This document shows positions 936 through 27,603 of a stretch of DNA of 64,000 nt, piece by piece. The DNA comes from Candidatus Binatia bacterium (GTDB lineage Bacteria; Desulfobacterota; Binatia; Bin18), in contig OY729511.1 in NCBI GenBank assembly GCA_963422435.1, forward strand, positions 3,850,105 through 3,914,104, in the 5' to 3' direction. The notes beneath the pieces are model-generated. The model saw only the letters and a program-made list of their open reading frames with translations, ran no database searches and was not told the DNA's origin. A program made the translations under genes and the position numbers. Positions within the stretch are counted from its first letter, which is position 1; each line of letters opens with the position of its first letter.

Positions 936-3818
936 ATGAGCCATAAGAAGGGCCTGCCAATATCAATGCCTACGCAGCGCAATCGTGAAGAGGTCGTCAA
1001 TACGCAACTTGCCGTGTTGATCTCACAGCTCGGCGTCACGGCCGACGCCGAAACCATTCATGTTCACGGCAAACACAGACCCGATGTGCTGTTCCAGCTT
1101 CGCGGCCTGCGGGCTGTCATCGAGGGCAAGTTTGCCGACGTGTCGAACGCCAAACAGATCGTCCTGGACGATGCCCGCAAACGCGTTCGGGCCGGCATTG
1201 CCCACATCGCTGCGGCAACCGTCTATCCCGAGCAACTTCGCACCACGCCCACCACGCAGATGCTTGATGTGCTGGCCGAGGCACGGCTGCACTACTGCAT
1301 TATTACCGAGACCTCCGAAGGCGATGAATGGTTCGAGGGGAATCCGGCGGCGCTGATGGAAGCCCTGCGCCGGGCGCAAGAGGCGCTCAGCCAAGATGAT
1401 CTCGTTGAGCGGACAGCCAAAGCGCTGCATGGCCGACTGGTCAGCGTGACTCAGCTCTGGCTGGGCCAGGCCGGCGCGTGTGACCGTCTGTCAAACATTC
1501 TCGGTATCACCCCGCCGAAAGGTGAGACACCAGACAAAGCCCAAGGCCGGCGCGAAACAGCGGCTAAGGTCTCGGCCCTGGTACTGGCCAACGCGCTGAT
1601 TTTTCAAGAACAGTTGGCGATAACGGATGGCCGGATCACCCCGCTACGCAAAATCGAAAAGGAAGCCGATTTAGTTGGCGCTATTGCGAAGCATTGGCAC
1701 TGGATATGGGAGAACATCAACTATGTGCCGATTTTCCAGCTCGGTGAGCGCGTGCTGGATGAACTGCCGAGCAATCTCAGCACCACGCAGGCCGTCAGCG
1801 CAGTACTCTCACAAGCCACAGCCATTTGCGAGCAACAGGCCGCCCTCCGCCATGACCTGATGGGGCGCATCTATCACTGGCTGCTGCACGAAGCGAAATA
1901 TCTCGGCACCTATTACACCTCGGTGCCAGCCGCTACCCTACTGCTCAAACTGACCCTGTCGGCGCACTGGAAACAGGACTTGGGCGACCCCGCGGAATTG
2001 GCGCACTTCAAGGTGGCCGACCTGGCCTGCGGAACGGGCACGCTGCTGATGGCGGCAGCCCAGGCATTTTCCGACGCGTACATCAGAACACGCGCGGCCT
2101 CAGACAGGCCGCTGGGCCAGCCGGAACTTTCGACACTGCATCGAACCTTGATGGAGCATATGTTGCACGGCTATGACGTGCTGCCTTCAGCCGTGCACCT
2201 GACGGCCTCGACCCTGGCCCTGCTCGCCCCGGACATTGCCTTTGTGCGGATGAATCTGTTTGTCATGCCGCTCGGCGTGGACCAGGGGCAGGCGCGGTTG
2301 GGCAGCCTGGATTTTCTTGACAACAGAGCACTCAGAACACAGATGGCACTTGACTATTCGCAGATTGAGACCGTCCGTACCGGCGCGTCCATGTCCCAAG
2401 AAACGAACGCGACGCTGCCCAAGCTGGACCTGTGCGTGATGAACCCCCCCTTTGTCCGTAGCGTGGGCGGCAACCTGCTCTTCGGTTCTCTGCCGGATGA
2501 ACGCGGCGTCCTGCAAAAAGACCTCAAGAAGCGACTCACGCACCTGCCAGCAAGTGCGACCGCTGGGCTGGGCAGCGTATTTGTTGCCCTGGCCGACAAG
2601 CACCTGGAAGTTGACGGACGGCTGGCCTTCGTCCTGCCGGCGGCCCTCGCTTCGGGCGAAGCCTGGGGGCCGACGCGCCAACTGCTCGCCGAGAGCTACC
2701 ATCTGGAAACCGTGGTTTCGAGCCATGACGCCGAGCGGCCCAATTTCTCGGAAAACACCGACTTGTCCGAACTGTTGTTCATCGCCCGCAAGCGCGGCAG
2801 CGGCGAGAAGTCGGGCAGAACGACCTATATCAGCCTGTGGCGCAACCCGCGCTCAATTCATGCAGCCCTGCACTTGGCGAACGCCATCGAGCATGTTGGC
2901 TCCATTGTCGGTATTGAAGAAGCCGGCATCACCGGGGCCAAGTTGGGAGACGAAAAGCTGGCCGAATTGATGACGCTGCCGGCCGCGTCGCCAGACGATA
3001 TTTGGCTCGGCGCGCTCTTTGCCCAAGTGGAATTGCTGCGTATTTCTTGGCACTTAGCGCAAGGCAGGCTGTCGATTCCAGGCTCAACGGAGAAAATGCC
3101 GATTCCCCTGTGTCCACTCCATGATCTCGGCGCACTCGGCCCGGACCGGAAACGGATACACGAAGGGTTCAAGGTCACAAAATCCGACTGGACGCCATTT
3201 CCGGGCTTCTGGGGACACAAGGCGGACGAGGTGACAACCATCGCGCAGACACCGAACTGCAAACTGCTGGAATGGCAGGATTCCCCGCGTGGTCCACACT
3301 ACGGGTCTCATCTGTGGCAGCGCGCGGGTCGAATACTTCTCGTCGAGCGATTATGGCCAATCACTCAACGGGTTTTAGCAGTGGGATTTGAGGAGAAAGT
3401 TCTCGGTAATACATGGTGGGCTTTCGACGAGTCTCAGTTGAATGAACTGCAACGGAAGGCACTGCTTGTATGGCTCAATTCGACCCTGAGCCTGCTCTTT
3501 TATTTTGGCCGGCGGACGGTCACACGGAGTGCCTGGATGCAGATGAAGCAGCCGGCTTGGGCGTCCATGCCGGTGCTCAATGTACGCAGTCTGACGCAAG
3601 AACAACTCACACCGCTTGCCAACGCCTATGACGAGGTGGCCTCGCAATCGCTCGCTCCGCTGGCACAGTTGGACGCCGACCCGGTTCGTATCCGCATTGA
3701 CGCTACCCTCTGCGCGGTTCTCGGCCTTCCCGCAATCGCCTCTGTTCGTGCCCTGCTCGCCCGTGAGCCGGGACTGACCGGGCGGAGGATTGGAGGGTCT
3801 ATTGTTAAAGCTGGATAG
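936..3818 (+). CDS. Single-chain type IIL/IIG (MmeI-like) restriction-modification enzyme: N-terminal PD-(D/E)xK nuclease, gamma-class N6-adenine methyltransferase, C-terminal target-recognition region
   Basis: 960 aa. Candidate PD-x13-EGK nuclease motif near the N-terminus (HRPDVLFQLRGLRAVIEGKF). SAM-binding motif I (VADLACGTGTLLMAAAQ) at ~aa 360 precedes motif IV (CVMNPPF) at ~aa 505, which is the gamma-class order. A ~450-aa C-terminal extension could be the target-recognition domain. Confidence 0.55.
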   Translation: MSHKKGLPISMPTQRNREEVVNTQLAVLISQLGVTADAETIHVHGKHRPDVLFQLRGLRAVIEGKFADVSNAKQIVLDDARKRVRAGIAHIAAATVYPEQLRTTPTTQMLDVLAEARLHYCIITETSEGDEWFEGNPAALMEALRRAQEALSQDDLVERTAKALHGRLVSVTQLWLGQAGACDRLSNILGITPPKGETPDKAQGRRETAAKVSALVLANALIFQEQLAITDGRITPLRKIEKEADLVGAIAKHWHWIWENINYVPIFQLGERVLDELPSNLSTTQAVSAVLSQATAICEQQAALRHDLMGRIYHWLLHEAKYLGTYYTSVPAATLLLKLTLSAHWKQDLGDPAELAHFKVADLACGTGTLLMAAAQAFSDAYIRTRAASDRPLGQPELSTLHRTLMEHMLHGYDVLPSAVHLTASTLALLAPDIAFVRMNLFVMPLGVDQGQARLGSLDFLDNRALRTQMALDYSQIETVRTGASMSQETNATLPKLDLCVMNPPFVRSVGGNLLFGSLPDERGVLQKDLKKRLTHLPASATAGLGSVFVALADKHLEVDGRLAFVLPAALASGEAWGPTRQLLAESYHLETVVSSHDAERPNFSENTDLSELLFIARKRGSGEKSGRTTYISLWRNPRSIHAALHLANAIEHVGSIVGIEEAGITGAKLGDEKLAELMTLPAASPDDIWLGALFAQVELLRISWHLAQGRLSIPGSTEKMPIPLCPLHDLGALGPDRKRIHEGFKVTKSDWTPFPGFWGHKADEVTTIAQTPNCKLLEWQDSPRGPHYGSHLWQRAGRILLVERLWPITQRVLAVGFEEKVLGNTWWAFDESQLNELQRKALLVWLNSTLSLLFYFGRRTVTRSAWMQMKQPAWASMPVLNVRSLTQEQLTPLANAYDEVASQSLAPLAQLDADPVRIRIDATLCAVLGLPAIASVRALLAREPGLTGRRIGGSIVKAG

Positions 3819-3936
3819 TCGTCCAAAAACCCTCCTTTTTGCCGTTGGCCTTATGCTGGATTTTGCACTTGGTATTTTCGTCGTACTTCTTCATCGGCGA
3901 ATCGAACTGCGTATGAAAGAGACCGGGAGGTCTGAA

Positions 3937-4053
3937 GAATGAGCGCTTACGGACTTATGGGATTCGCTGGACTCCTCATGGTTGCAGGAATGATTAGTGA
4001 CGTCGTAGGGCAGGTCGTCAGAGAGGCCGGGCGAGTTTCGCTGTAAGGATTGA
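3937..4053 (+). CDS. Candidate small membrane peptide (38 aa), speculative
   Basis: ATG preceded by GGGAGG at -8. Hydrophobic N-terminal helix (YGLMGFAGLLMVAGMI). Sits in a lower-GC intergenic stretch. A 9-codon mini-ORF upstream ends in ATGA, which overlaps this start. Confidence 0.2.
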
Positions 4054-4089
4054 GAGTGACAAACTGAGACGGTTCGACAGATCAGCCCC

Positions 4090-4123
4090 CCCCTCACCCT
4101 AGCCCTCTCCCTCCGGGGGAGAG
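4090..4123. repeat. GC-rich hairpin repeat, copy A (CCCTCTCCC-tccgg-GGGAGAGGG) with the shared 5' arm cctcaccctRgccctctccc
   Basis: 9-bp perfect stem with a 5-nt loop. The 21-nt 5' arm is near-identical (1 mismatch) to the copy at 62591-62611. Confidence 0.6.
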
Positions 4124-4238
4124 GGAATAAGACCCCCGACCACGAGCCCGCCGAAATCCTGCCCGCCGGGATAGCCATAACCCGGCGATTTGCTACGCTA
4201 TCGTATAGACCGGGACAGGAGGAGCGGACAGAAAAACT

Positions 4239-5570
4239 ATGGCGCATTTACGACAACTGCGGCTGGGCGCGTTCATGCGACCGGTCAGCATTCATACCGC
4301 GGCCTGGCGCTATCCGGGCGCGTTCCCGGATGCCAACTTCAATTTTTCCCATTACCAGCGCTTCGTCTGCACGCTGGAACGGGGCCGCTTCGACGCCTTT
4401 TTCATGGCCGATCACCTGGCCGTGCTCAATATGCCGATGGCGGCGCTCAAACGGAGTGCCACGGTCACGTCTTTTGATCCGCTCACCCTACTCCCGGCGC
4501 TGGCCACCGTCAGCACGCATCTGGGGCTGATTGCCACGGCCTCTACCACCTACAACGATCCGTATCATGTGGCGCGGAAATTTGCCTCGCTCGACCATAT
4601 CAGCGGCGGACGGGCCGGCTGGAACGTCGTGACCTCGGCCAACCCGGACGAAGCGTTGAACTTCGGACGCGAGGAACACATGGAACATGACGCGCGCTAT
4701 CGTCTGGCGCGCGAGTTCTACGATGTGGTGACCGGCCTGTGGGATAGTTGGGCGGACGATGCCTTTATTCGCGACGTCGAGGCCGGCGTGTATTTCGACC
4801 CTGAGAAGCTGCACGTGCTGAACCATACAGGCCGGCATCTCTCCGTGCGCGGCCCGCTGAATATCGCCCGGCCTATTCAGGGCTGGCCGGTCATCGTCCA
4901 GGCCGGCGCGTCAGAGGCCGGTCGTCAACTCGCCGCGGAGACCGCTGAAGTCGTGTTTTCCGGGGTCAATAATCTACAGGCCGCCCAGTCCTACTATGCG
5001 GATGTCAAAGGCCGGATGGAGGCATACGGGCGCTGTCGAGACCATCTCAAAATCCTGCCGGGTGCCTTTGTTGTCGTTGGCGACACGCTGGCCGAGGCGC
5101 GGGCAAAGAAAACGAAGCTCGACAGCCTGGTCCACCCGGATAGCGGCATGGCCACACTCTGCGTCCTGCTGGGCCATGACGTGTCGGACTCTGACCTGGA
5201 CAGTCCACTGCCCGACATCCCGGAAAGCAACGCCAGTCAATCCGGGCGGCAGAAACTGGTCGAAATGGCGCGCAAGGACAATATGACCATCAGACAGCTT
5301 GCCCAGTATGTGGGCGGCAGTTTCAGCACCCTGGAACTTACTGGCACGCCGAGCATGATCGCCGATCACATGGAGGAATGGCTCATGACCGAAGGGTCGG
5401 ACGGCTTTAATGTCATGTTCCCCTATCTGCCGGGCGGGCTGGACGACTTTGTGGACCGGGTCGTACCCGAACTACAGCGCCGCGGCCTGTTTCGACGCGA
5501 GTACGAGGGCGCGACCCTGCGTGAAAACCTTGGCCTGCCGCGTCCGGAGAATCGCTTTTTTACAGACTGA
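4239..5570 (+). CDS. LLM-class flavin-dependent monooxygenase, NtaA/SnaA/DszA family
   Basis: 443 aa. Start resembles this family (FMADHLAVLNMP...); the translation is TIM-barrel luciferase-like monooxygenase-like throughout. SD GGAGGAG upstream. Confidence 0.85.
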   Translation: MAHLRQLRLGAFMRPVSIHTAAWRYPGAFPDANFNFSHYQRFVCTLERGRFDAFFMADHLAVLNMPMAALKRSATVTSFDPLTLLPALATVSTHLGLIATASTTYNDPYHVARKFASLDHISGGRAGWNVVTSANPDEALNFGREEHMEHDARYRLAREFYDVVTGLWDSWADDAFIRDVEAGVYFDPEKLHVLNHTGRHLSVRGPLNIARPIQGWPVIVQAGASEAGRQLAAETAEVVFSGVNNLQAAQSYYADVKGRMEAYGRCRDHLKILPGAFVVVGDTLAEARAKKTKLDSLVHPDSGMATLCVLLGHDVSDSDLDSPLPDIPESNASQSGRQKLVEMARKDNMTIRQLAQYVGGSFSTLELTGTPSMIADHMEEWLMTEGSDGFNVMFPYLPGGLDDFVDRVVPELQRRGLFRREYEGATLRENLGLPRPENRFFTD

Positions 5571-5673
5571 AGAGAGCCTGCCCTTGAGCGTCCTTCGACT
5601 TCGCTGGCGCTACGCTCAGGACGAACGGAGAAGAAGAGAACCCAGCCGAAGGGTGGACAGAGGAGACAGTGCA

Positions 5674-6474
5674 ATGGCCGATACACAGTCGTCTCACGAG
5701 GCCGCCAGATTTTTATGGAACGAACGTCAGGCCGGCCGGCCCTTTGTTCCCATCCCGGAGCCGCATACACCGCACCGCCTTGAAGATGCCTATGCCGTTC
5801 AGGCCGAGCTTCAGCAATTTTTGACGGAAATCTATGGTTCTCTCGCCGGATATAAAATTGCGTTGACCACGCCGGTGATGCAAAAAATGGTCGGCTTTGA
5901 CGAACCTATTGCCGGCGCCATTATGGAAAAAACTATCCACCATACCCCGGCTCGGGTGCGCCTGAGCGACTATGGTCGCCTGGGAGTCGAGTGCGAGATT
6001 GCCGTGCGGCTGGCGCAAGATTTGCCAGCCGAGCGGGCTCCCTATACGCGCGAGCGTGTAGCCGGGGCAGTCGGGGCTGTCCTGCCGGCCTTTGAACTGG
6101 TTGACGATCGCCACGCTGACTACACCAAGATCGCCGACCACATCCTGACCCTGCTCGCGGATAACGCCTGGAACGACGGCATTGTCTTGGGTTCGCCGCT
6201 GACAGACTGGCAATCGCTCGACCTGGCTGCCATACACGGCACCATGCGCATCAACGGCGAAGTCGTTGGAGAAGGGGATGGTCGGGACGTGCTGGGACAT
6301 CCGCTCGATGCCCTGGCCTGGCTGGCGAGTACACTGGCCGCCCAGGGCAAGACCCTGTCTCAAGGCATGGTCGTCATGACCGGCAGCGTGGTGGCGACCA
6401 AGTTTGTGAGTCAGGGCGACCGGGTGCAGTTGACGATGGATGGGCTGGGCGAGGTGGAACTGAGTATTAAATAA
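5674..6474 (+). CDS. 2-keto-4-pentenoate hydratase family protein (MhpD/BphH/HpaH-like)
   Basis: Translation from MADTQ resembles MhpD (LEDAYAVQAELQ..., GHPLDALAWLA..., MTGSVV). AGGAGA SD 7 nt upstream of the ATG at 5674. The longer ORF from 5410 is an out-of-gene extension. Confidence 0.75.
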   Translation: MADTQSSHEAARFLWNERQAGRPFVPIPEPHTPHRLEDAYAVQAELQQFLTEIYGSLAGYKIALTTPVMQKMVGFDEPIAGAIMEKTIHHTPARVRLSDYGRLGVECEIAVRLAQDLPAERAPYTRERVAGAVGAVLPAFELVDDRHADYTKIADHILTLLADNAWNDGIVLGSPLTDWQSLDLAAIHGTMRINGEVVGEGDGRDVLGHPLDALAWLASTLAAQGKTLSQGMVVMTGSVVATKFVSQGDRVQLTMDGLGEVELSIK

Positions 6475-6524
6475 ACCGGGGAACCCACCCCGCCGCTCCG
6501 AGGAAGGGACAATACTATCCTCAC

Positions 6525-8150
6525 TTACTTCCCCATCCTTTCGTCCAGGAATGCGCTGACCTTACCAATCCCAATGCGCTCCTGCTCCAGGGTGTCACGG
6601 TCACGCACGGTGACGGTCTGGTCCGCAAGCGTGTCACCGTCAATCGTAAAGCAGTAGGGCGTACCGGCTTCATCCATGCGTGCGTAGCGTTTGCCGATGT
6701 TCTGCTTCACATCGAGTCGGACGGCGTATTGCGGGCGCAACCCCTGGTAGAGCTTCTCGGCCACCTCGGGCATACCACTTTTGTTGACCAAGGGAAAAAC
6801 GGCCGCCTTGATCGGCGCCAGCCGGGGGTGGAATTTCATATAGACCTTGCTCGGCCGGCTCTCGTCCGGTGTATAGGCTTCACACAGTGCCGCCAGGGTT
6901 CCACGGTCGGCGCCAGCGCTCGGCTCGATCACGTGCGGGAAATAGCGCTCGTTGCGCTGGTCGTCAAAATAGCGCAGCTTGTCCCCCTGACCACAATGGG
7001 TGGCGTGCTGGCGCAGGTCATAGTCGGCACGATGGGCTATGCCTTCCAATTCCCCATAGCCGGGCGCGGTAAACGGGAAACGATACTCGACATCGCTCGT
7101 GCCGGCTCCCTCTTTGGCGTAGTGGGCGAGTTCGTCCTGATCGTGCGCACGCAGTGTCAGGTTCTCGCCCGCCAGACCAATAGACTGCCACCAACGAAAA
7201 CGAGTGTCGCGCCAGTACTGATACCACTCTGCGGCTTCCTGGGGATGAATGAAGAACTCGATTTCCATCTGCTCGAACTCGCGCGACCGGAACGTAAAAT
7301 TGCGCGGCGTGACCTCGTTGCGGAACGCTTTGCCGATCTGCGCAATCCCGAACGGCACCCGCACCCGATTGGTATCCAGCACATTCCAGAACTGGGTAAA
7401 AATTCCCTGGGCCGTCTCCGGACGCAGATAGGTAACCGCCGACGGATCTTCGACCGCGCCGGTCGTGGTCTTGAACATCAGATTAAAAGGCCGCGGCTCA
7501 GTAATCTCCCCGCCACAGAACGGGCATGGCGGCTGTGGCAATTCGCCAGCTACGCGCTGCTCGGTGGCAAGCTGCCCAACCAATTGGTCCAACCCGATGT
7601 CAATCGGCGACGCTTCCTGTTCTCGTCCCTCAGTCAGGAGCGCCAGCGTTTCCGCTGGCTTGCGGACAAGAGCCAGGTTCGGGGCGCTCTTTTTTGCGGT
7701 CTTTTCTCCCCAGCGCTTCACGCTTTTGACAGTCACATTCCCCGCTTCATGCAGCTCTTTCAGCGAGGCATACCAGTCACTCTCGTGAATCATCTCATCA
7801 ATATGATCGTACCGTACGAGCTTCTTACAGTGACGGCAGGTGCTCATCAAATCGGAGAACCCGCCCACATGACCCGAGGCTTCCCAGACTTTCGGGTTCA
7901 TAATAATGGTCGCGTCCACGGGAACGATCTCGATGGGCCGACCGTCCGGACCAGGGGCCGGGCAACGGACCACGTCTTGCCACCAGGCTTCCTTGAGGTT
8001 GCGTTTCAGTTCAGCGCCGAGCGGGCCGTAATCCCAGAAGCCGTTAATGCCGCCGTACAATTCGGACGACTGAAAGATAAACCCGCGGCGTCGGCATAAC
8101 GAGACAATAGGGTCCATTGATTTTGTTGCGGGCGGAGTCTGTTTGCTCAT
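6525..8150 (-). CDS. glyQS: Glycine--tRNA ligase, alpha2 homodimeric type
   Basis: 541-aa translation matches class II GlyRS (IVSLCRRRGFIFQSSELYGG, FRNE, GIAHRADYDL). The start may be the second Met at 8117. Confidence 0.9.
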   Translation of the reverse strand: MSKQTPPATKSMDPIVSLCRRRGFIFQSSELYGGINGFWDYGPLGAELKRNLKEAWWQDVVRCPAPGPDGRPIEIVPVDATIIMNPKVWEASGHVGGFSDLMSTCRHCKKLVRYDHIDEMIHESDWYASLKELHEAGNVTVKSVKRWGEKTAKKSAPNLALVRKPAETLALLTEGREQEASPIDIGLDQLVGQLATEQRVAGELPQPPCPFCGGEITEPRPFNLMFKTTTGAVEDPSAVTYLRPETAQGIFTQFWNVLDTNRVRVPFGIAQIGKAFRNEVTPRNFTFRSREFEQMEIEFFIHPQEAAEWYQYWRDTRFRWWQSIGLAGENLTLRAHDQDELAHYAKEGAGTSDVEYRFPFTAPGYGELEGIAHRADYDLRQHATHCGQGDKLRYFDDQRNERYFPHVIEPSAGADRGTLAALCEAYTPDESRPSKVYMKFHPRLAPIKAAVFPLVNKSGMPEVAEKLYQGLRPQYAVRLDVKQNIGKRYARMDEAGTPYCFTIDGDTLADQTVTVRDRDTLEQERIGIGKVSAFLDERMGK

Positions 8151-9622: not shown

Positions 9623-11188
9623 ATGTCACTCATTACCTGGTCGTGGATCTTTCTCATCTTTTATATCGGCGGCATGTTGGCCATCGGCGTGTTTGCCGGG
9701 CGACGGGTCAAGCACGCTGACGACTTTGCCACCGCACGCGGCGCATACGGACCCTTATTTCTCGCGTTTGCCTTTGCCGCGACCACGGCCAGCGGCGCCA
9801 CCTTTCTCGGCAGCTCGGGCCTTGGCTACGAGTGGGGCCTGCCGACGATGTGGGGGTGCTTCCTGTACCCGACCGGGATGTATGTCGGCGTGTTGATCGC
9901 CATGCGCCTGGTTACCACCTCGGGCCATCGGTTCGGGAACCGCTCCATACCGGAGTACCTCGGGGACCGCTACCAATCCGAAGGCATCCGGATACTCATC
10001 TCGGTCTTTTCCTTAGTGCTATTTTTCTATCTGGCCGGGCAGTTGGTGTCCGGGCTGGTGATGTTCGAGATTATGCTGGGCCTGTCCCCCCTCTGGGCGC
10101 TGCTCATCACCACCACCGTGTTATTGATTTATGTCGTGCTCGGCGGCGCGCATGCCGACATCCTGACGGATGGGGTGCAGGGCTTCATGATGCTGCTGGT
10201 CGCGCTGATGGTGATCATCCTGTTTCTGACCGGATTTGGAGTAGACAGCGAAAGAGCGGGCCTGCCGGGCATTATCGACAGCCTGACCGAGCAGGACGCG
10301 TACCTGGTCGGCGTGCTGAATGCCGAGACCGCGCTGTATCATTCCTGGTGGTCCGTTGTGGCCATTTTTATTTCACACATACCCCTCGGCCTGCTGCCCC
10401 ATCTCGGGAACAAACTCTGGGCCTTAAAAAGCGTGAGCCAACAGCAATCGTTTATCAAACTGGCCTTCACGTTTGGGCTGACGCTGGGCATGCTCGGCTT
10501 GGGCGGTCTCCTGGCCCGCGCGATATTGGGCGATGCGCTTTATGCCGAGGGGGCGAACCCGAATCAGGCCCTGCCCCTCCTCTTCATCGAGCTGTTCCCA
10601 ACCTGGCTCGCCGCCCTCATTGGGGTGGGCGTGCTGGCGGCGATCATGTCCACCGCGGATGGGCTGGTCATCTCCTCATCCCAGGTGATTGCCAACGATC
10701 TCTACCGTCGGACCATCGTGCCTCGACTCAAGCATCCTCCGAATGCTGCGCAACTGGACCAGCGGATTTTAGCCATCAGTCGGGTGGCGACTGTTGTTGT
10801 TCTGGTACTGTGTACCGCCCTGGCCTGGGCTTTGGTCGAGACCAATATCGCCCTCATTGTCTGGATCGGGAACGGCGGCATGATGGCGGCCTTTGCCGGC
10901 CCCCTCGTGGTCGGTGCGCTCTGGCGCGGTGTCACCCGCACAGGCGCTTATGCCGGCCTGATCAGCGGTTTCGTCACCTTCCTCGTGCTGCACACCCAAA
11001 TGATTGATCCCGCCTGGTTCGCGCCCGGCCTGCTGCACACTGCCGCCTCCTGGCTGTACGCCGAGGGACCAAGCCCGTTCTCCTGTGCAACGATAGGGGA
11101 ACTCATGTCGGTCGCCTGTACCTATGTCGTATCCAAAGCAACCCAACCGCTGCCTGAGACGCACGTGCAGGCGTTGTTTGAGTCTTGA
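9623..11188 (+). CDS. Sodium:solute symporter (SSS) family transporter, paralog 1
   Basis: 521 aa with ~13 predicted TM helices. SSS-type N-terminus (HADDFATARGAYGPLFLAFAFAATTASGATFLGSSG). About 75% identical to the ORF at 14324-15901. Confidence 0.8.
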   Translation: MSLITWSWIFLIFYIGGMLAIGVFAGRRVKHADDFATARGAYGPLFLAFAFAATTASGATFLGSSGLGYEWGLPTMWGCFLYPTGMYVGVLIAMRLVTTSGHRFGNRSIPEYLGDRYQSEGIRILISVFSLVLFFYLAGQLVSGLVMFEIMLGLSPLWALLITTTVLLIYVVLGGAHADILTDGVQGFMMLLVALMVIILFLTGFGVDSERAGLPGIIDSLTEQDAYLVGVLNAETALYHSWWSVVAIFISHIPLGLLPHLGNKLWALKSVSQQQSFIKLAFTFGLTLGMLGLGGLLARAILGDALYAEGANPNQALPLLFIELFPTWLAALIGVGVLAAIMSTADGLVISSSQVIANDLYRRTIVPRLKHPPNAAQLDQRILAISRVATVVVLVLCTALAWALVETNIALIVWIGNGGMMAAFAGPLVVGALWRGVTRTGAYAGLISGFVTFLVLHTQMIDPAWFAPGLLHTAASWLYAEGPSPFSCATIGELMSVACTYVVSKATQPLPETHVQALFES

Positions 11189-11265
11189 ATAAGTTTCGAG
11201 GATAGATATGCAGGCCATCTGAACTGACACGGCATAAAAAGTTACAGAGGGAAAGCGGTAGTCAT

Positions 11266-11589
11266 ATGGCAAGTAGCATAAAAATAGGTCTTCAGATCGT
11301 CAGGGCTGTCCATCGCGCTCACAGACAGTTTCTCCGAGAGGCTGAGAGAAGACGTAAGGCTGAGAGAAGACGTAAGGCTGAGGAAAGGGAAGCCGCACGT
11401 CATCAACGAGAGTACGCGCGCTTGCTCAAACAGCAATCGCGTGAGAGAGCCGCTTACGAGCGAGCACAAGCGGTTGCAGGGAAGAATAGGTTTAAGCGGA
11501 GTCTAGAAAGCGCTCAAGCAGCTTTCGACATGAGATGTCGAGAGCGGAAAATCCTTCGTGACTCAATAGTCAATGCAGTTCTAAAATAG
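11266..11589 (+). CDS. Small Arg/Lys-rich predicted coiled-coil protein (107 aa), unknown function
   Basis: Low-GC ORF. Highly charged (ERRRKAERRRKAEEREAARHQRE), with an 18-bp tandem duplication at the nucleotide level. Stop lies 11 nt before the next gene start, so it is probably co-transcribed. Confidence 0.5.
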   Translation: MASSIKIGLQIVRAVHRAHRQFLREAERRRKAERRRKAEEREAARHQREYARLLKQQSRERAAYERAQAVAGKNRFKRSLESAQAAFDMRCRERKILRDSIVNAVLK

Positions 11590-11600
11590 AGTGGAGAACA

Positions 11601-13028
11601 ATGGATGCTCAGTATATTACGGGAACGCTGGGAGTCTTATCTTTTTCCATCATCACAACTTACTTCTTAGTTCGTAATAGATTTAAGAAGCAGATTGCAG
11701 CATACCGCTCCATCTCTGATGCGGTCGAGAAGACCACTCAGAAACTGACTCAAACTGAAACAGAGCTGACCGAAGCCCAGCAGGGACTTGAGACTGTTCG
11801 AGACGAAACGAAGGAGCTTCAAGACCTCAAGGAGAACGCTGGGCAACTTAAGGCTCAGTTGGAAGAGTCATCAAAGCAACTCGAAGAGATATCTGTCGAT
11901 ATTGAATCCAAAGAAGATAGACTGGACACCCTGGACGGGCAACTTCACCAATTAATGTCAAAAGTTGACCTCTATTCTAGAGTCGATGAATTTGTTGAGC
12001 ATGGCCTATTCGAAGAGCCAGAGTATCTATTTGAAACTACAGAGCGCTTCGCTGAAGAAATCAAACGAACCCGCGAGAAGCAAAAAGAATTGATCAAGAA
12101 TAAAGAAGCTGTCACTCTTCCTAGTTCCCTTACAGTTTCGTCAGATAAAAGGCAGGGCAAGAAAATACTTGAAGGTCAAGTCAAGCTCATGCTGACCACT
12201 TTTAATATTGAGTGTGATCTTCTTATCGGCAAGGTTAATCCTGGTAATTTTGCACGTGCTTTGGAGCGCATTGAGAAGCTGGCGGCTACGCTCGAAAAAT
12301 CTGCCGCTACTCTACATTGTGGGTTCAACATTGAATTTGTTCGACTAAAATTCGAGGAATGTAGGCAGCAGTATCAATACAAACTCAAGAAGCAGGAAGA
12401 ACAAGAGGAACAACGCCTGATTCGTGAGCAGATGCGCGAGGAACAAAAAGCGATCAAAGAATATGAGCGTGCATTGGCCCAGGCGGAAAAGGAGGAGCGG
12501 GTATACCGCGACATACTTGAGAGGGTCCGCAACGAACTTGAGCAGGCTACCGCAGGTGATCGCCTTCTCATAGAACAACGGATTGCTGACCTTGAGAGAC
12601 AACTTGCGGAAGCTGAGGCAAAAGAGGAGCGTGCCAAGAGCATGGCTGAACAGACGCGTCGTGGCCATGTCTATATAATAAGCAATCTAGGCTCATTCGG
12701 TGAAAACGTATACAAAATTGGCCTTACTCGCCGTCTAGAGCCTTTGGATCGTGTGAAAGAGCTTGGCGATGCAAGTGTACCCTTCTCATTTGACGTCCAT
12801 GCCCTAATCTACTCGGATGATGCCCCGGCACTTGAAAAGGCTTTGCATCGTAAGTTCGCTCATAACCGAGTTAACGTGGTGAACCTCCGTAAAGAGTTTT
12901 TTCGTACTGAGATTACCGCCATAAAAGAAGCAGTTGAAAAAATAACCAATGGAGAAGCTGACTTTAAGCTGACCGCGGTGGCAGAAGAATATTATGAATC
13001 CAGACGACTACAGAGAGTAGAGACGTAG
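11601..13028 (+). CDS. Membrane-anchored coiled-coil protein with C-terminal GIY-YIG-like (T5orf172/DUF4041-type) nuclease domain
   Basis: 475 aa. N-terminal TM helix (ITGTLGVLSFSIITTYFLV). Then ~330 aa of heptad-rich charged coiled coil. C-terminus: GHVYIISNLGSFGENVYKIGLTRRLEPLDRVKEL (GIY-x11-YIG spacing, with the Arg and Glu in the expected places). The gene's GC (~45%) is well below its surroundings. Confidence 0.6.
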   Translation: MDAQYITGTLGVLSFSIITTYFLVRNRFKKQIAAYRSISDAVEKTTQKLTQTETELTEAQQGLETVRDETKELQDLKENAGQLKAQLEESSKQLEEISVDIESKEDRLDTLDGQLHQLMSKVDLYSRVDEFVEHGLFEEPEYLFETTERFAEEIKRTREKQKELIKNKEAVTLPSSLTVSSDKRQGKKILEGQVKLMLTTFNIECDLLIGKVNPGNFARALERIEKLAATLEKSAATLHCGFNIEFVRLKFEECRQQYQYKLKKQEEQEEQRLIREQMREEQKAIKEYERALAQAEKEERVYRDILERVRNELEQATAGDRLLIEQRIADLERQLAEAEAKEERAKSMAEQTRRGHVYIISNLGSFGENVYKIGLTRRLEPLDRVKELGDASVPFSFDVHALIYSDDAPALEKALHRKFAHNRVNVVNLRKEFFRTEITAIKEAVEKITNGEADFKLTAVAEEYYESRRLQRVET

Positions 13029-13093
13029 AGTCAAAAAGAGGCTTTTCAGAGCTTCCTCCTACCTTCTGACCTTTCAGCAGGAGACTCAGTTAG

Positions 13094-13366
13094 GTGGACA
13101 CAGGTCTCGGTGCTGCACTGCACGAGAAAGGCAGCCGTATGAAAGATCAAAGCGTTGTCGTGCATAGCGATCCTGACATTCTCGGTGGAACTCCCGTCTT
13201 TATAGGGACACGAGTTCCGGTGAAAGCGCTATTGGATTACTTCGCTGGGGGACATACTCTGGATGACTTTCTTGATGATTTTCCTACGGTAACACGCGCT
13301 CAGGCAGTAGCAGTCTTGGAGCAGGAGGGACAGTTGCCGGCGGGTGTTCATGCGCGTTCTGCTTGA
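13094..13366 (+). CDS. DUF433-family antitoxin-like protein
   Basis: HSDPDILGGTPVFIGTRVPVKALLDYFAGGHTLDDFLDDFPTVTRAQAVAVLE matches the DUF433 pattern. Probably starts at the internal Met (13139). Overlaps the downstream DUF5615 ORF by 17 nt. Confidence 0.6.
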   Translation: MDTGLGAALHEKGSRMKDQSVVVHSDPDILGGTPVFIGTRVPVKALLDYFAGGHTLDDFLDDFPTVTRAQAVAVLEQEGQLPAGVHARSA

Positions 13367-13728
13367 TGAGTGCGTCCCCCGGAAGATTCGAGGCGAACTG
13401 CCGAGCCATGATGTCCAGACCGTAGCCGAGATGGGCTGGGGAGGCACAAAGAAATGGAGCCTTGCTCCGCCGAGCCACCTCGGAGTTCGGTGTCCTGCTG
13501 ACCGTAGATCAAGGAATCCCATATCAGCAGAATATCGGGGGTCTCTCTCTGGCTTTGGTCATCATCAAAGCGTCAAGCAATGACATCAATGACTTGCGAC
13601 CCAAGCTGTCTGAGGTGTTACGAGTACGGGAGACGATTCAGCCTGGCCAAGTGGTACAGGTTGCCTCACCACACGCTCTGGCCGTTCACATCCTTATATC
13701 ATCCAGACGGTTTCTTTCTGCGGCGTAA
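13350..13728 (+). pseudogene. DUF5615 (PIN-like) toxin partner of DUF433, disrupted by a +1 frameshift
   Basis: N-terminal half (MRVLLDECVPRKIRGELPSHDVQTVAEMGWGG) is in the frame of 13344/13350. C-terminal half (NGALLRRATSEFGVLLTVDQGIPYQQ...PGQVVQV) is in the frame of 13462. One extra A in aaagaaatgg (~13447) explains the shift. Confidence 0.55.
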
Positions 13729-13806
13729 ATAATAAGGCATTGCTGCCTGGTCAGCGAACCGTGTAGTAAGAATGAAATCACACGTCTGGCCAAAGGAGGG
13801 CTTAGT

Positions 13807-14241
13807 ATGGCCATGTCAGAACTGGAAGCGCGCATCATCAGGCTCGAAGACATCGAGGCGATAAAACAGCTCAAGGCTCGCTACTGCGAAATCTGCGACG
13901 ATATGCACAACCCCGACAGAGTCACGTCGGTCTTTGCTGAGGACGCCATCTGGGAAAGTCCAGATTTCGGCAAGGCTGAGGGCCATGAGGCGATTCGTGA
14001 ATTATTTCGCAAATTCCAAAATATGTTCAGCTTTTCCCAGCACAACATCACGAACCCCATCATCGAGGTCAACGGCGCTCGCGCCACCGGCATCTGGTAT
14101 ATCATGGGTCCGTGGACGTATGCCGAAAATGACGACGAGAAATGGCTGGCCCTGCGCTATGACGACGACTACGTGAAAGTCAACGGGGAGTGGAAGTATC
14201 AGCACTTACGGGTCGCCCTGCGGATGACGGCCGATCGATAA
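13807..14241 (+). CDS. NTF2-like / SnoaL-like domain protein
   Basis: 144 aa; LEDIEAIKQLKARYCEICDD...WESPDFG...KWLALRYDDDYVKVNGEWKY resembles the nuclear-transport-factor-2 fold family. Confidence 0.65.
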   Translation: MAMSELEARIIRLEDIEAIKQLKARYCEICDDMHNPDRVTSVFAEDAIWESPDFGKAEGHEAIRELFRKFQNMFSFSQHNITNPIIEVNGARATGIWYIMGPWTYAENDDEKWLALRYDDDYVKVNGEWKYQHLRVALRMTADR

Positions 14242-14323
14242 CACCAGCCCCTGCGCGCCGTGTGGCAAAGCGGGGTCCGTGGAATCCCCAGACTTCCCTT
14301 TGGACGTGTAAGGAAACCTGCCC

Positions 14324-15901
14324 ATGACACTTATTACTTGGTCGTGGTTCTTCCTCATCATCTATATCGGCGGCATGATAACCATCGGGGTTGTGGCCCA
14401 GCGGCGCGTTAAACATGCCGACGACTTTGCCACGGCGCGTGGCGCGTACGGACCGCTGTTTCTGGCCCTGGCATTTTCGGCGACCACTGTGAGCGGGGCA
14501 ACCTTCCTGGGCTTGCCGGGACTGAGCTACACTTGGGGGCTGACTACAATGTGGGGCGTCTTTCTGGGTCCTGCCGGCCTGTGTCTGGGCATGTTGCTCA
14601 CCATGCGTCTGATCACGAACTCCGGCCACCGGTTCGGCAACCGCTCCATCCCCGAGTACCTGGGCGACCGCTACCAGTCCGAAGGCATTCGGGTCCTGGT
14701 CTCGCTGTTTTCCCTGTTGTTGTGTTTTTATCTGGCCGGACAGCTCGTGTCGGGCTTGGTCATGTTCGAGATTCTGCTGGGTTTACCGCCGCTCTGGGCG
14801 CTGATCATCACCACAACTGTGTTGCTGATTTACGTGGTGCTGGGTGGAGCCCATGCCGATATTATTGCCGACGGAATCCAGGCCTGTCTGATGCTGCTGG
14901 TCGCCGTTGTGGTCGTCGTGCTCTTCCTCATCGGCTTTGGGCTGGATGTGGGCGAATCGGGGAGGAGCGGATTCTTGGGACTGGTCGATAATCTGGCCGC
15001 TCAGGACGAGCACCTGGTGAGTACACTCAACACGAAAACCCCGCTCTATCACTCCTGGTGGTCGATTGTCTCGCTGGTGATTTCGTTCATTCCGCTGGGT
15101 GTGCTGCCTCACCTGGGCAATAAGCTCTGGGCCTTAAAACACAGCATGTACCAGAACCGCTTTCTGACCCTCACGACCATATTTGTCATCACCTTGGCCA
15201 TGCTGACCTTGGGCGGCCTGCTGGCTCGGGCACTGCTGGGCGAGGCCCTGTTTGCCGAGGGCGCGACCTCGAATCACGCCCTGCCGACCCTCTTCATCGA
15301 GCTGTTTCCGACCTGGTTGGCGGCCCTGGTCGGTGTCGGCATCCTGGCCGCCATTATGTCCACCGCGGACGGACTCGTCGTGTCTTCCTCTCAGATTATC
15401 GCCAACGACCTCTACCGGCGGAGCATAGTCCCACGATTGAAGCATCCGCCAACCGAGGCGCAGCTCGACCGCCAAGTTCTATACATCAGCCGGGTGGCGA
15501 CCGTTGCCGTGCTGGTCATTTGCGCAGCGATAGCCTGGTCGTGGGTTGAAACCAACGTCATGCTGATTGTCTGGATTGGCACCGGCTGCGTCATGTCGGC
15601 CCTGGCCGGTTCCCTGGTATTCGGGGCCCTGTGGCGCGGGGTCACCCTGGCTGGGGCCTACGCCGGGCTGGTCAGCGGCTTTGTCAGCTTTCTGGTTCTG
15701 CACGCCCAACTGGTCGACCCGGCCTGGTTTGCCCCCGGCCTGCTGCACACAGTCGTCTCCTGGCTTTATATCGAGGGCGTCAATCCGTTCTCCTGCTCGG
15801 CCCTCGCCAGCCTCACCTCGGTCGTCTGCACCATCATCATCTCCAAAGTGACCCAGCCCCTGCCCGAGTCGCACGTCCAAGAGCTGTTCGAGGGGGTGTA
15901 A
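14324..15901 (+). CDS. Sodium:solute symporter (SSS) family transporter, paralog 2
   Basis: 525 aa; collinear with and ~75% identical to 9623-11188. Confidence 0.8.
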   Translation: MTLITWSWFFLIIYIGGMITIGVVAQRRVKHADDFATARGAYGPLFLALAFSATTVSGATFLGLPGLSYTWGLTTMWGVFLGPAGLCLGMLLTMRLITNSGHRFGNRSIPEYLGDRYQSEGIRVLVSLFSLLLCFYLAGQLVSGLVMFEILLGLPPLWALIITTTVLLIYVVLGGAHADIIADGIQACLMLLVAVVVVVLFLIGFGLDVGESGRSGFLGLVDNLAAQDEHLVSTLNTKTPLYHSWWSIVSLVISFIPLGVLPHLGNKLWALKHSMYQNRFLTLTTIFVITLAMLTLGGLLARALLGEALFAEGATSNHALPTLFIELFPTWLAALVGVGILAAIMSTADGLVVSSSQIIANDLYRRSIVPRLKHPPTEAQLDRQVLYISRVATVAVLVICAAIAWSWVETNVMLIVWIGTGCVMSALAGSLVFGALWRGVTLAGAYAGLVSGFVSFLVLHAQLVDPAWFAPGLLHTVVSWLYIEGVNPFSCSALASLTSVVCTIIISKVTQPLPESHVQELFEGV

Positions 15902-15986: not shown

Positions 15987-16268
15987 CGAGTTTGCCGAAC
16001 AGTATCCCTCCCTATCACTGCACTGCGCCAGGACGCCACGACCGTGTGAAAGCAAGTCAGCCAGTCGGACGACCCGTTTGTCATCACCCAACGAGGACGA
16101 GCCGCGGCGGTGTTATTGAGTGCAGAAGCCTACCAGCGGGTCGAGTCTGAGCGGCAGATACCCAGGCTCCTGGCTCAGGGGAAAAAAGAAATTGCTGAAG
16201 GGCGTGGTATCGACTTGGACACGGTACTCGCCGAGGCCGATGTACTGCTTGAAACTGAAGACTTGTGA
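15987..16268 (+). pseudogene. Phd/YefM-family antitoxin remnant with an in-frame TGA and no in-frame start
   Basis: Frame reads ...TVSLPITALRQDATTV*KQVSQSDDPFVITQRGRAAAVLLSAEAYQRVESE...LETEDL*. This matches Phd/YefM throughout but is interrupted by TGA at 16047-16049. The only nearby ATG is in another frame. The stop overlaps the next ORF's GTG (GTGA). Confidence 0.55.
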
Positions 16269-16420
16269 CCGTTGGATTCACCCCGTCCGCTCGGGCGCAA
16301 TTCCTAGCTGCCATTACGTACATCCGTCGCGACAACCCAGGAGCGGCGAGACAGTTTCGCCAACGCGCCAAGCAGATTCTCCGTCGGCTTGGACAATTTC
16401 CAGAACGCAGCCCGGCTCGT
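16265..16420 (+). pseudogene. ParE/RelE-family toxin N-terminal fragment, 3' half lost
   Basis: MTVGFTPSARAQFLAAITYIRRDNPGAARQFRQRAKQILRRLGQFPE matches the ParE N-terminus. The similarity is lost where the convergent secreted-protein gene ends (16420). Confidence 0.5.
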
Positions 16421-16938
16421 CAGATGATGGGGGTATCCTCCACATCAGTCATCTCCATGTGTTGGGTGCTCTGGTTCCACTCAAATGTCGTGGTCTCCCC
16501 TGGACTAGGGAAACCCGAGAGCCGGCACGTGCCACTCGCCCCTTTCAAAAACGCCTCCCCTGTCGTCGTTACGGTGAGCCTGGCCTCCGCAAATAAGACG
16601 CCATTATCATAAGCCTTGGCGGTGTGGGGCCCATCGCCGAGTTCGCCCCAGTTCCAGATGGCGACAAAACCGTTGTCGGTATCTCCACACACCTCTTGGG
16701 TATCGGGCCGCTGACTGCCGTATAGCATGGGAACTGGATTCGGAATGCCCTCTGCAATGAGGGCCCCATCGTTGAATTCAACGGTGATGTCTCCCTCAGC
16801 GTCACATTTCCATCCGCTGATCACCCCAACACCCGATAATTTGGTCCCGTCGCTCGGCACACCAAGGGCAGACTGGGCATGAACCAGAGCCGGGACCAGA
16901 ACAATGAGTGTAGTAGAAATACAATGCAGAAAAGACAT
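16420..16938 (-). CDS. Secreted protein of unknown function (signal peptide)
   Basis: 172 aa; N-terminal MSFLHCISTTLIVLVPALVHA-QS signal peptide. AGGAGG SD upstream. Confidence 0.55.
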   Translation of the reverse strand: MSFLHCISTTLIVLVPALVHAQSALGVPSDGTKLSGVGVISGWKCDAEGDITVEFNDGALIAEGIPNPVPMLYGSQRPDTQEVCGDTDNGFVAIWNWGELGDGPHTAKAYDNGVLFAEARLTVTTTGEAFLKGASGTCRLSGFPSPGETTTFEWNQSTQHMEMTDVEDTPII

Positions 16939-26753: not shown

Positions 26754-27461
26754 TCAGAATTTTTCCTTGAACGGCCGCACGTCGATTTCGGTCGTCCAGG
26801 AACTGCGGTCCTGATGGGCCATATGCCAATACGTCTCGGCAATGGCCTCGGGCTTGAGCATGTCTTCCTCGGTCATATTGGAAAAATTGCGGCCCGGGAT
26901 ATCGATCACGCCATCGACATTGACCCAGCCCACATGAATGCCCTTGGGACCCAGGTCGCGCGCCAACGATTGCACCAAGCCGCGCAGGGCGAACTTTGCC
27001 GGGCCGAAGGCCACCGAGCGGGGGCCGGCCTTCACGCCGGCGGTCGCGCCGGTAAACAGCATGGCGCCGCGCCCGCGTTCAAGCATGTCCGGAACTACTT
27101 CCTTCGCGCTCAGAAACGCGCCATAGGCGTTGACACGCCAAGCGTCCTCGTACTGCTCCGGGGTCATATCAGCGATCGTGCCGAAGGCCCCACTGCCGGC
27201 GTTATAGAGCAATATCTCGGGCGGGCCGAGCTGTTCACGAATCGTCTTGAACAGCGTCTCGATCTGGGCTCGGTCGCTCAGGTCGGCTGGTGCCTCGCAG
27301 ACCTGCCCCCCGTCAGCACGGATCTCTTCCGCCAGCGATGCGAGATATTCCGTACGGCGGGCGTTGATGGCCACGGCATATTCTTGGGCGAACCGATGGG
27401 CCAGCGCGGCCCCCAAGCCCGGACCAACTCCGAGTACTGCGACAACTGGTTTTTCTGCCAT
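26754..27461 (-). CDS. SDR-family oxidoreductase
   Basis: VVAVLGVGPGLGAALAHRF (Rossmann GxxxGxG); NAG; Y...K motif (AFGPAKFALRG). Confidence 0.8.
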   Translation of the reverse strand: MAEKPVVAVLGVGPGLGAALAHRFAQEYAVAINARRTEYLASLAEEIRADGGQVCEAPADLSDRAQIETLFKTIREQLGPPEILLYNAGSGAFGTIADMTPEQYEDAWRVNAYGAFLSAKEVVPDMLERGRGAMLFTGATAGVKAGPRSVAFGPAKFALRGLVQSLARDLGPKGIHVGWVNVDGVIDIPGRNFSNMTEEDMLKPEAIAETYWHMAHQDRSSWTTEIDVRPFKEKF

Positions 27462-27603
27462 GCTAGTGTCCTTTCGTTCGGAAGAGTTATGGCCCACATC
27501 CTACCGGTAGCAGGAGAAAGGGACAAGCGTTTGCAGCGGACACCTATCTGATATACCTATCGGCCTTTGTCCTGGGCAGAAGCGAGAGGCAGAGGAGAGA
27601 CGC

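Follow-up and report, generated by a model that had tools for sequence, protein, structure and literature searches.

Gene content of the locus

In a 64-kb stretch of a Candidatus Binatia chromosome (contig OY729511.1; hereafter the window, numbered from its first letter), about 3.1 kb of low-GC DNA separates two sodium:solute symporter (SSS) genes, SSS1 and SSS2. A prior survey of the letters alone, here called the original prediction, had reported five genes in this interval, and all five are present on the plus strand: a gene for a small charged protein, a nuclease gene that we identify as a homologue of the anti-phage protein SNIPE (PD-lambda-1), a DUF433/DUF5615 toxin–antitoxin (TA) pair and an NTF2-like gene. 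Our comparison with related loci leads us to read the locus, with considerable confidence, as a hotspot holding two modules of separate origin, a horizontally acquired SNIPE cassette and an older, broken TA module. The features are given below with the evidence for each; GC3 is GC content at third codon positions, dN/dS the ratio of nonsynonymous to synonymous substitution rates, AF2 an AlphaFold2 model, and L-numbers denote individual loci.

9623–11188, plus strand: SSS1, native sodium:solute symporter, left flank of the hotspot (PF00474 E = 1e-45; GC3 0.77)
11183–13038, plus strand: two-gene SNIPE cassette, core segment (homologous DNA present in the L020 and L046 cassettes)
11266–11589, plus strand: small SNIPE-associated protein, 107 aa (synteny with SNIPE, AF2, dN/dS)
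11339–11374, plus strand: 18-bp tandem duplication (AERRRK twice) in the Glu/Arg/Lys (E/R/K)-rich centre of the small protein (repeat search; not in L020 or L046)
11601–13028, plus strand: SNIPE/PD-lambda-1 homologue, 475 aa (PADLOC PD-Lambda-1, Pfam domains, AF2 architecture)
13080–13728, plus strand: DUF433/DUF5615 TA module (homology blocks to relatives; conserved 5' leader 'GA(C/T)TCAGTTAGG...')
13139–13366, plus strand: DUF433 (COG2442) predicted antitoxin, 75 aa, intact (PF04255 E = 1.7e-17)
13350–13728, plus strand: DUF5615 (PIN-like) predicted toxin, frame-disrupted (the repaired protein matches PF18480)
13807–14241, plus strand: SnoaL_4 (NTF2-like) gene, native, bordering the hotspot on the right (PF13577 E = 2e-27; GC3 0.717)
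14324–15901, plus strand: SSS2, native paralogous symporter (PF00474; GC3 0.78)

The two symporters are 72% identical across 523 aa and both match PF00474, which bears out their earlier description as paralogues; a CoA-transferase III (frc-like) gene lies upstream of SSS1 (Pfam). The compositional anomaly between them was likewise described correctly. GC content over 11189–14323 is 0.496, against 0.589 for the whole window, and is the lowest of any interval in the 64 kb (z = −6.4 relative to 0.594 ± 0.015 in non-overlapping 3135-bp windows). The tetranucleotide deviation of 0.275 is also the largest in the window (background 0.173 ± 0.017). Sliding GC runs at ~0.60–0.62 in SSS1, 0.43–0.50 over 11.2–13.2 kb, 0.53–0.55 up to 14.2 kb and 0.61 in SSS2. 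The limits of 11189 and 14323 did not hold as boundaries: because SnoaL has a host-like GC3 and the spacer before SSS2 (14242–14323) is 64.6% GC, the anomalous DNA extends from 11183 to ~13750 and ends before SnoaL.

A full-length SNIPE homologue

PD-lambda-1 was found as an E. coli defence gene by Vassallo et al. 2022 (PMC9519451) and characterised as SNIPE, a membrane-bound GIY-YIG nuclease, by Saxton et al. 2026 (PMC13190303). In the E. coli protein, DUF4041 has DNA-binding activity and an implicated role in binding the tape-measure protein; cleavage of phage DNA during injection falls to the GIY-YIG nuclease (catalytic E414) and protects against siphoviruses (PMC13190303).

The gene at 11601–13028, described in the original prediction as a membrane-anchored GIY-YIG-like nuclease, proved to encode a full-length member of this family. 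It matches the PADLOC profile PD-Lambda-1 (PDLC03976) at E = 1.4e-163, with residues 10–472 on profile positions 9–474 of 491, and PHROG 1847 at E = 8e-134; the family comprises more than 7,900 homologues at E ≤ 1e-10. DUF4041 (PF13250, a family that carries the name SNIPE in a newer Pfam release) is matched over the full profile by residues 195–250 (nt 12183–12350; E = 6e-13), and the GIY-YIG nuclease occupies residues 355–448 (nt 12663–12944; T5orf172 PF10544 E = 7e-16, MUG113 PF13455 E = 4e-18). Near the N-terminus, residues ~6–24 (nt 11616–11672; mean Kyte-Doolittle 1.7) form a predicted transmembrane (TM) helix followed by RNRFKK, consistent with the positive-inside rule, and the remaining polypeptide is predicted to be cytoplasmic. 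The candidate catalytic glutamate, E412 (nt 12834–12836), aligns with E414 of E. coli SNIPE and does not vary among 37 homologues. dN/dS of 0.07–0.18 was obtained for the gene.

AF2 modelled a TM helix (3–34), an 89-residue stalk helix (38–126), DUF4041, linker helices and a C-terminal alpha/beta domain, at a mean predicted local distance difference test score (pLDDT) of 77 with low values at 377–396. The stalk region (residues 26–125) has a net charge of −8. A Foldseek search of the whole model against the PDB gave no match at E ≤ 0.001, and the matches returned were long-helix noise.

As reference we took PD-lambda-1 of E. coli phage PhiR26_1, which has every residue mutated in the SNIPE paper. 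The window protein is 40% identical to it and shares a single N-terminal TM helix, DUF4041, a C-terminal GIY-YIG (T5orf172) domain with conserved catalytic glutamate, a similar length (475 versus 500 aa) and a location in accessory DNA. The two differ in the N-terminal stalk region, which is poorly alignable, and in context, since the E. coli copy resides in a lambdoid prophage whereas the window copy sits in a Candidatus Binatia chromosome between metabolic genes. They also differ in that a conserved small helical protein precedes SNIPE in the window and none lies upstream of the E. coli gene. Overall, the window protein has every sequence-testable property of SNIPE except that of being a single-gene system. 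Searching E. coli genomes by megablast with a SNIPE from a gut metagenome returned no match.

By homology with the E. coli system, DUF4041 would engage both DNA and the phage tape-measure complex, with the GIY-YIG domain (E412) cleaving phage DNA at injection and location, not sequence, sparing self-DNA. ManYZ, the host factor of E. coli SNIPE, is not known to play a part in the window system. A protein whose mechanism was published only in 2026 is here extended to Candidatus Binatia.

A conserved small gene precedes SNIPE in one subclade

Eleven nucleotides upstream of SNIPE lies the charged mini-protein gene of the original prediction, which had recognised the protein and overlooked its constant association with SNIPE, which points to a partner role. 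The protein has a pI of 11.6 and a net charge of +18. Its N-terminus is amphipathic, its centre is rich in E/R/K and its C-terminus bears the conserved motif F..RC.ER..LR..I..VL (F76–L106); in the AF2 prediction a single uninterrupted helix spans residues 2–106 (pLDDT 94). Hydrophobic moments reach 0.7–0.9 in the N-terminal 18-mers of the three variants that have no TM segment. E, R and K make up more than 50% of the centre, whose length varies via tandem duplications such as the 18-bp one here and an analogous 15-aa one in L077. A 155-aa variant at L082 (2203–2685) has an N-terminal TM segment (mean Kyte-Doolittle 3.0) in place of the amphipathic one and a much longer E/R/K-rich centre.

The small protein is under purifying selection and is no chance ORF (open reading frame): dN/dS is 0.18–0.47 within Binatia and 0.01–0.05 against L075. 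A profile search of 1.84 billion representatives recovered 107 members (50%-identity clusters), nearly all of 90–130 aa. The protein had no family match in Pfam (above threshold), PADLOC, PHROGs or NCBIfam; the Pfam family SYF2 reached E = 0.0076, below the cut-off, and was taken as compositional. BLASTP of the small protein against SNIPE found nothing. We also considered fusion of the small protein into SNIPEs that have no partner gene, and rejected it when profile matches proved weak and confined to the E/R/K linker after DUF4041, in the compositionally biased centre of the profile.

Synteny ties the small gene to SNIPE. It stands directly 5' of SNIPE in 25 of 25 loci from Binatia, Vibrio, metagenomes and viral contigs, spanning at least two phyla, and the intergenic distance is 4–13 nt wherever it was read. 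The surroundings vary: the pair lies between a hydrolase and an ion channel in L075, between dcd and bioB in L077 and after ahpF in Vibrio rotiferianus (L078, CP174457; pair at 5001–6759), and it recurs in 12 metagenome loci and the three closest viral contigs. When five homologues, some of them distant, were found via the small protein alone, SNIPE followed in every case. Presence of the small gene falls with SNIPE identity, from 8/8 at ≥55% through ~10/31 at 45–55% and 1/43 at 40–45% to 0/70 below 40%, and tracks the type of SNIPE N-terminal region. L091 encodes a SNIPE of the same subclade (52% identity) and has no small gene; ORFs at 2381–2536 of that locus, after queA and ~450 bp upstream of SNIPE, are spurious and resemble a tRNA gene. 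The SNIPE paper (PMC13190303) makes no mention of an upstream or accessory gene.

One alternative is that the small ORF is an independent passenger, for instance a leader peptide, transcription factor or nucleoid-binding protein, with SNIPE as mere neighbour. A protein this basic could bind nucleic acid, L091 dispenses with the small gene, and charge complementarity is inconsistent, partnered SNIPEs having net charges of −13, −24 and −21 and that of L077 only −2. Against this, none of the 25 neighbourhoods had the small gene without SNIPE, the short gaps suggest co-translation, the conserved motifs at its termini and a dN/dS under 0.5 speak for a protein that folds and is selected, and its presence follows the SNIPE N-terminal region type. 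We consider the passenger explanation fairly unlikely, if the strongest of the competitors.

The pattern points instead to a protein that partners SNIPE structurally. The amphipathic N-terminus of this partner would rest at the membrane, the E/R/K helix would follow the acidic 89-residue stalk, and the conserved C-terminus would touch SNIPE and assist in positioning or restraining the nuclease. We tentatively propose, at somewhat short of even confidence, that this SNIPE subclade is a two-component system in which the nuclease needs, or is gated by, a basic single-helix protein of ~100 residues running along the stalk at the membrane. The small protein could serve as an adaptor linking nuclease and phage injection machinery, substituting for a host factor (ManYZ, for example), or it could instead be a latch that holds membrane-bound SNIPE auto-inhibited. 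Two points were left for later by the SNIPE paper (PMC13190303), how auto-inhibition of the membrane-bound nuclease is achieved and how the variable N-terminal region selects phages, and a helical partner that co-varies with that region offers a testable handle on both. As an islet the locus is unremarkable, combining a known defence gene with a TA pair in decay within accessory DNA; what is new is the conserved two-gene form of SNIPE, described neither in the SNIPE papers nor in any library searched.

Phage connections of the cassette

Relatives of SNIPE are frequent among phages, with 336 in viral contigs and 44 in cultured phage records, and the nearest SNIPEs outside Binatia (~60–65% identity) belong to marine and sponge-associated Gammaproteobacteria. 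Since the homologues are common in prophages, a phage or gammaproteobacterial donor is plausible. In the viral contig L163 (IMG/VR UViG_3300005043_000095; 2909–5533), the small gene and SNIPE directly follow a CI/LexA-like repressor gene (HTH_3 plus Peptidase_S24). The spot next to a prophage repressor classically holds prophage-encoded exclusion genes, as with lambda RexAB next to cI. The position in L163 resembles such immunity-region morons, as does the location of the PhiR26_1 SNIPE in an early region; the window copy, unlike these, has no phage context at all.

Could the window cassette be the moron of a decayed prophage that once integrated here? The viral relatives, the repressor-adjacent two-gene form in L163 and the early-region position of SNIPE in the lambdoid phage would fit. 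Yet in the window, L020 and L046 alike the gap is free of phage genes and their remnants, whether structural, replication or integrase, there is no tRNA (0 in the whole 64-kb window) or att-like repeat, and in L075, L077 and L078 the cassette is likewise a naked two-gene insert between housekeeping genes. We judge a resident prophage very unlikely, while a phage may have served as delivery vehicle.

An integrase-free hotspot among Binatia relatives

A scan for SSS1 in species-representative genomes returned 73 loci, the closest in Candidatus Binatia metagenome-assembled genomes (MAGs) at 80–96% amino-acid identity. The MAG and bin names suggest putative sponge-associated sources. Twenty-one Binatia loci with the frc–SSS1 arrangement formed the close set; the contig of one, L013, ends ~150 bp past SSS1, leaving 20. 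SSS1 is 86.9–92.9% identical at the nucleotide level in 19 close relatives and 77–79% in L019 and L021, and SnoaL is 89.6–92.6% identical in most and 85–86% in the latter two, with 84–93% as the full range. SnoaL precedes SSS2 in all 20 loci whose contig reaches past SSS1. This constancy identifies SnoaL as a native gene of the transporter locus, lying outside the islet to which the original prediction had assigned it.

Between these flanks, the SSS1-to-SnoaL gap ranges over the 20 loci from 101 bp in L015, effectively empty, to ~6 kb. By ORF clustering, Pfam and PADLOC, its cargo includes a short-chain dehydrogenase (SDR) in 19 loci, a putative cyclase in seven, HigB/HigA, a MazF/PemK pair, an OLD/AriAB/GajA-like ATPase (L012, L020) and an IS630 fragment (L009). 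DUF433/DUF5615 or its remnants occur in ~11 of the 21 relatives; the small gene and SNIPE occur together in two (L020, L046) and are absent from 19. With conserved flanks, an empty site and at least eight distinct cargo gene families, the SSS1–SnoaL gap is an integrase-free hotspot of defence and addiction module turnover.

The window allele has lost the native dehydrogenase gene: an orthologue of the SDR of the relatives' gap is absent from the entire 64-kb window. Among the dehydrogenases of the window, just one resembles the hotspot SDR, a 31%-identical paralogue on the minus strand at 26760–27482, ~13 kb away.

The original prediction held that the whole interval was a single 3.1-kb islet of five genes, inserted in one event between two adjacent paralogous transporters. 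The genes do share a strand, GC is below that of the flanks throughout, and the symporters are directly adjacent in the more distant Binatia L023, L033 and L022, so that adjacency holds at that remove. In close relatives it does not, as the SDR gene normally fills the gap. SnoaL, moreover, combines a GC3 of 0.72 with presence in 20/20 checkable relatives, the cargo-free L015 among them. Distribution differs between the TA module (~11/21) and the SNIPE cassette (2/21), and their separate homology blocks meet at 13038/13080. A single insertion event is thus highly improbable, and two foreign modules beside a native SnoaL take its place.

Integrase-free defence hotspots between conserved core genes occur in E. 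coli and other pangenomes. The present locus is like them in that SSS1 and SnoaL bracket varied small defence and TA cargo of low GC, with an empty site in L015 and no mobility genes; it is unlike them in lying inside a tandem array of paralogous transporters and in showing duplicated 182-bp fragments of the SSS1 3' end and gene fusions at microhomology, traits that suggest a contribution from unequal or illegitimate recombination in the array. It offers a clean case of integrase-free cargo turnover in a tandem paralogue array, with an empty site, microhomology junctions and duplicated flank fragments, and should be useful for studying the movement of naked defence cassettes.

Other cargo of the hotspot deserves brief description. 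The ATPase of L012 (13119–14879) and L020 (15006–16766) is a 586-aa OLD-family, AriAB/GajA-like protein (PADLOC AriAB E = 2e-27, Old E = 2e-22), preceded in L012 by a 338-aa protein unmatched in both Pfam and PADLOC. A second, divergent DUF433-like gene, 38–43% identical to that of the window, lies between SnoaL and SSS2 in L002 (14168–14317), L004, L005, L006, L007, L012, L018, L046 and L054; it is absent from the window, where the SnoaL–SSS2 spacer measures 82 bp.

A toxin–antitoxin module with a disrupted toxin

Makarova et al. 2009 (PMC2701414) predicted DUF433 (COG2442) to act as an antitoxin to PIN toxins. The original prediction of a DUF433/DUF5615 TA pair agrees with the domains, which indicate a predicted PIN-type pair, and missed a frameshift in the toxin gene. 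Homology to the relatives begins at 13080–13083 in L002, L003, L004, L006, L007, L012, L020 and L046 and at 13098 in L011, with nucleotide identity of 87–91%, rising to 96.5% with L003 inside the DUF433 gene. Alignment of relatives places the DUF433 start at the conserved ATG 13139, not at GTG 13094, and dN/dS of 0.03–0.13 indicates purifying selection.

DUF5615 overlaps DUF433 by 17 nt (13350–13366). An extra A at 13452–13454 shifts its frame, so that the N-terminal part is read in the frame of ATG 13350 and the rest in the +1 frame. The extra A is absent from five intact relatives (L003, L007, L011, L012, L020) and present in the Logan contig L001. Neither half-ORF matches Pfam; with one A removed, the protein matches PF18480 at E = 1e-5 (25.7 bits versus a cut-off of 23.8) and PIN_10 weakly. 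DUF5615 is either a pseudogene or the product of an uncorrected homopolymer error. At its far end (13665–13728), the usual stop TAA of L007, L011, L012 and L020 reads TCA in the window and in L003, and the frame is ~20 codons longer.

The arrangement is like that of COG2442/PIN type II TA systems (PMC2701414), with a small DUF433 gene overlapping a same-strand PIN-like (DUF5615/PIN_10) gene and a patchy distribution among close relatives. It is unlike them in that the toxin is frameshifted while the antitoxin is intact and under purifying selection. For this subfamily, toxicity and neutralisation are predictions in the literature that we searched. We interpret this second module (13080–13728) as an older antitoxin/PIN-toxin pair whose toxin is now frameshifted.

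Cassette junctions and route of arrival

Nucleotide alignment delimits the SNIPE cassette. By blastn, window 11181–13038 corresponds to L046 3940–5779 at 89.9% identity and window 11001–13143 to L020 at 89.3%, and homology to L075, where the context is unrelated, is limited to 11266–13024, that is, to the two genes. At the left junction, the window and L020 read ...TTTGAG followed by TCTTGAATAAG, replacing the last three codons and stop of SSS1 in relatives (GGGACGTAG). The cassette contributes the last sense codon and stop of SSS1 (TCT TGA, 11183–11188), and the symporter ends in ...ALFES* here and in ...ALFEGT* in relatives. L046 retains the native SSS1 end and ~70 bp beyond it before the same TCTTGAATAAG. 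On the right, window, L020 and L046 all run into the DUF433 leader at differing points, L046 being without window 13039–13111. In L020 (13441–13560), the DUF433 leader and ATG are fused in frame to the SDR gene at an ATGAA microhomology, which puts a native metabolic gene behind a TA-module leader.

Features of classical genomic islands (integrase or transposase, tRNA/att target, flanking repeats) were not found at the locus. The interval between the symporters has no ORF for an integrase or transposase, which, with the lack of tRNA genes, agrees with the original prediction. The short direct repeats that it had proposed to look for at 11189 and 14323 did not materialise: at those positions and at the refined boundaries, direct or inverted repeats were none beyond chance, the internal 18-bp duplication being the only one. 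A sigma-70 promoter and terminator scan of 11100–14400 gave counts within ~1.6 standard deviations of shuffles.

Co-oriented cargo, modules of 0.7–2 kb and many TA pairs might also describe an integron-like cassette array lacking an integrase (a cluster of attC sites lacking integron integrases, CALIN), its cassettes captured at attC sites, and a GTTAGGT heptamer (GTTRRRY-like) does occur at 13087, at the 13080 module boundary. Such a heptamer is expected by chance about once per kb. Boundary DNA had folding z-scores of 0.08, −0.80 and 0.12 and no attC-like hairpin (folding compared with shuffles, with no dedicated attC model), and the cassette limits had no inverted repeats and no Rfam match. 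A core site is lacking at the left cassette end (TCTTGAAT), which is joined at two different positions in L046 and the window, and no integron integrase was present among the gap ORFs of the 21 loci. We accord this explanation next to no credence.

The lack of terminal repeats and attC hairpins, together with the shifting junctions, fits illegitimate or homology-anchored recombination rather than site-specific integration. We read the first module (11183–13038) as a horizontally acquired two-gene operon, whose arrival went with loss of the native SDR and of the last three SSS1 codons. Illegitimate or homology-anchored recombination would have brought it in, and spread among Binatia would then have proceeded via the conserved flanks. 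In two pairs involving L020, synonymous divergence (dS) of SNIPE is 0.24 and 0.20, against 0.42–0.64 for flanking SSS1 and SnoaL in the same pairs, which suggests exchange among Binatia species through recombination in those flanks.

Several observations pull against this account as a whole. Between the window and L046, cassette divergence equals flank divergence, and an ancient acquisition followed by many losses is an alternative to transfer; dS favours exchange in the L020 pairs only. The frameshift lies in a short A-run, and its only other carrier, L001, may share the same sample. For SNIPE, the GIY-YIG fold is a sequence-level assignment and the AF2 nuclease domain is partly of low confidence. 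Activity and mechanism are carried over by homology from a 40%-identical E. coli homologue that has no small partner. The putative role of the small protein draws on synteny, predicted shape and a weak charge trend with L077 as exception.

Fragments of symporter genes mark other cargo boundaries. Orphan 182-bp 3' ends of SSS1, 87–90% identical to the window, lie between cargo modules in L007 (12365–12546), L017 (12301–12483) and L020 (14418–14599), while L005, L006, L009, L010 and L054 have SSS2-like 3' fragments downstream of their last symporter. Such fragments suggest flank-anchored or unequal recombination in the paralogue array.

Codon-level composition and the SSS2 exit

Codon-level composition and gene content support the view of the original prediction that the DNA between SSS1 and SnoaL is foreign and carries defence and addiction genes. 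The SNIPE cassette is 46.6% GC across both genes; GC3 is 0.435 for the small protein gene, 0.447 for SNIPE and 0.44 for DUF433. Elsewhere, the cassette is AT-richer than its host in L075, L077, L078 and L081 and equal to the flanks in low-GC L080. That the low GC is a by-product of Lys/Glu-rich coiled coils in a native gene is barely credible: SNIPE does have the lowest GC at second codon positions of the genes measured (0.326), reflecting a charged helical composition, but GC3, largely protein-independent, is 0.44–0.45 against 0.72–0.78 in native neighbours, and the cassette is absent from 19 of the 21 relatives and present in unrelated contexts and phyla. Because the GC drop persists at synonymous sites, protein composition cannot account for the anomaly. 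A 14-kb Logan contig (run ERR11641160) is 100% identical over the locus, which argues against misassembly.

Downstream of SSS2, a second decayed addiction module occupies 16110–16612. Its 115-aa ORF corresponds only to the N-terminal half of the ParE toxin (PF05016, positions 3–50 of 89), is preceded by a 52-aa antitoxin-sized ORF that has no Pfam match, and is overlapped by a 172-aa gene on the opposite strand. GC is low (0.45–0.55) over 16.6–18.8 kb, and the exit of SSS2 may be another variable spot.

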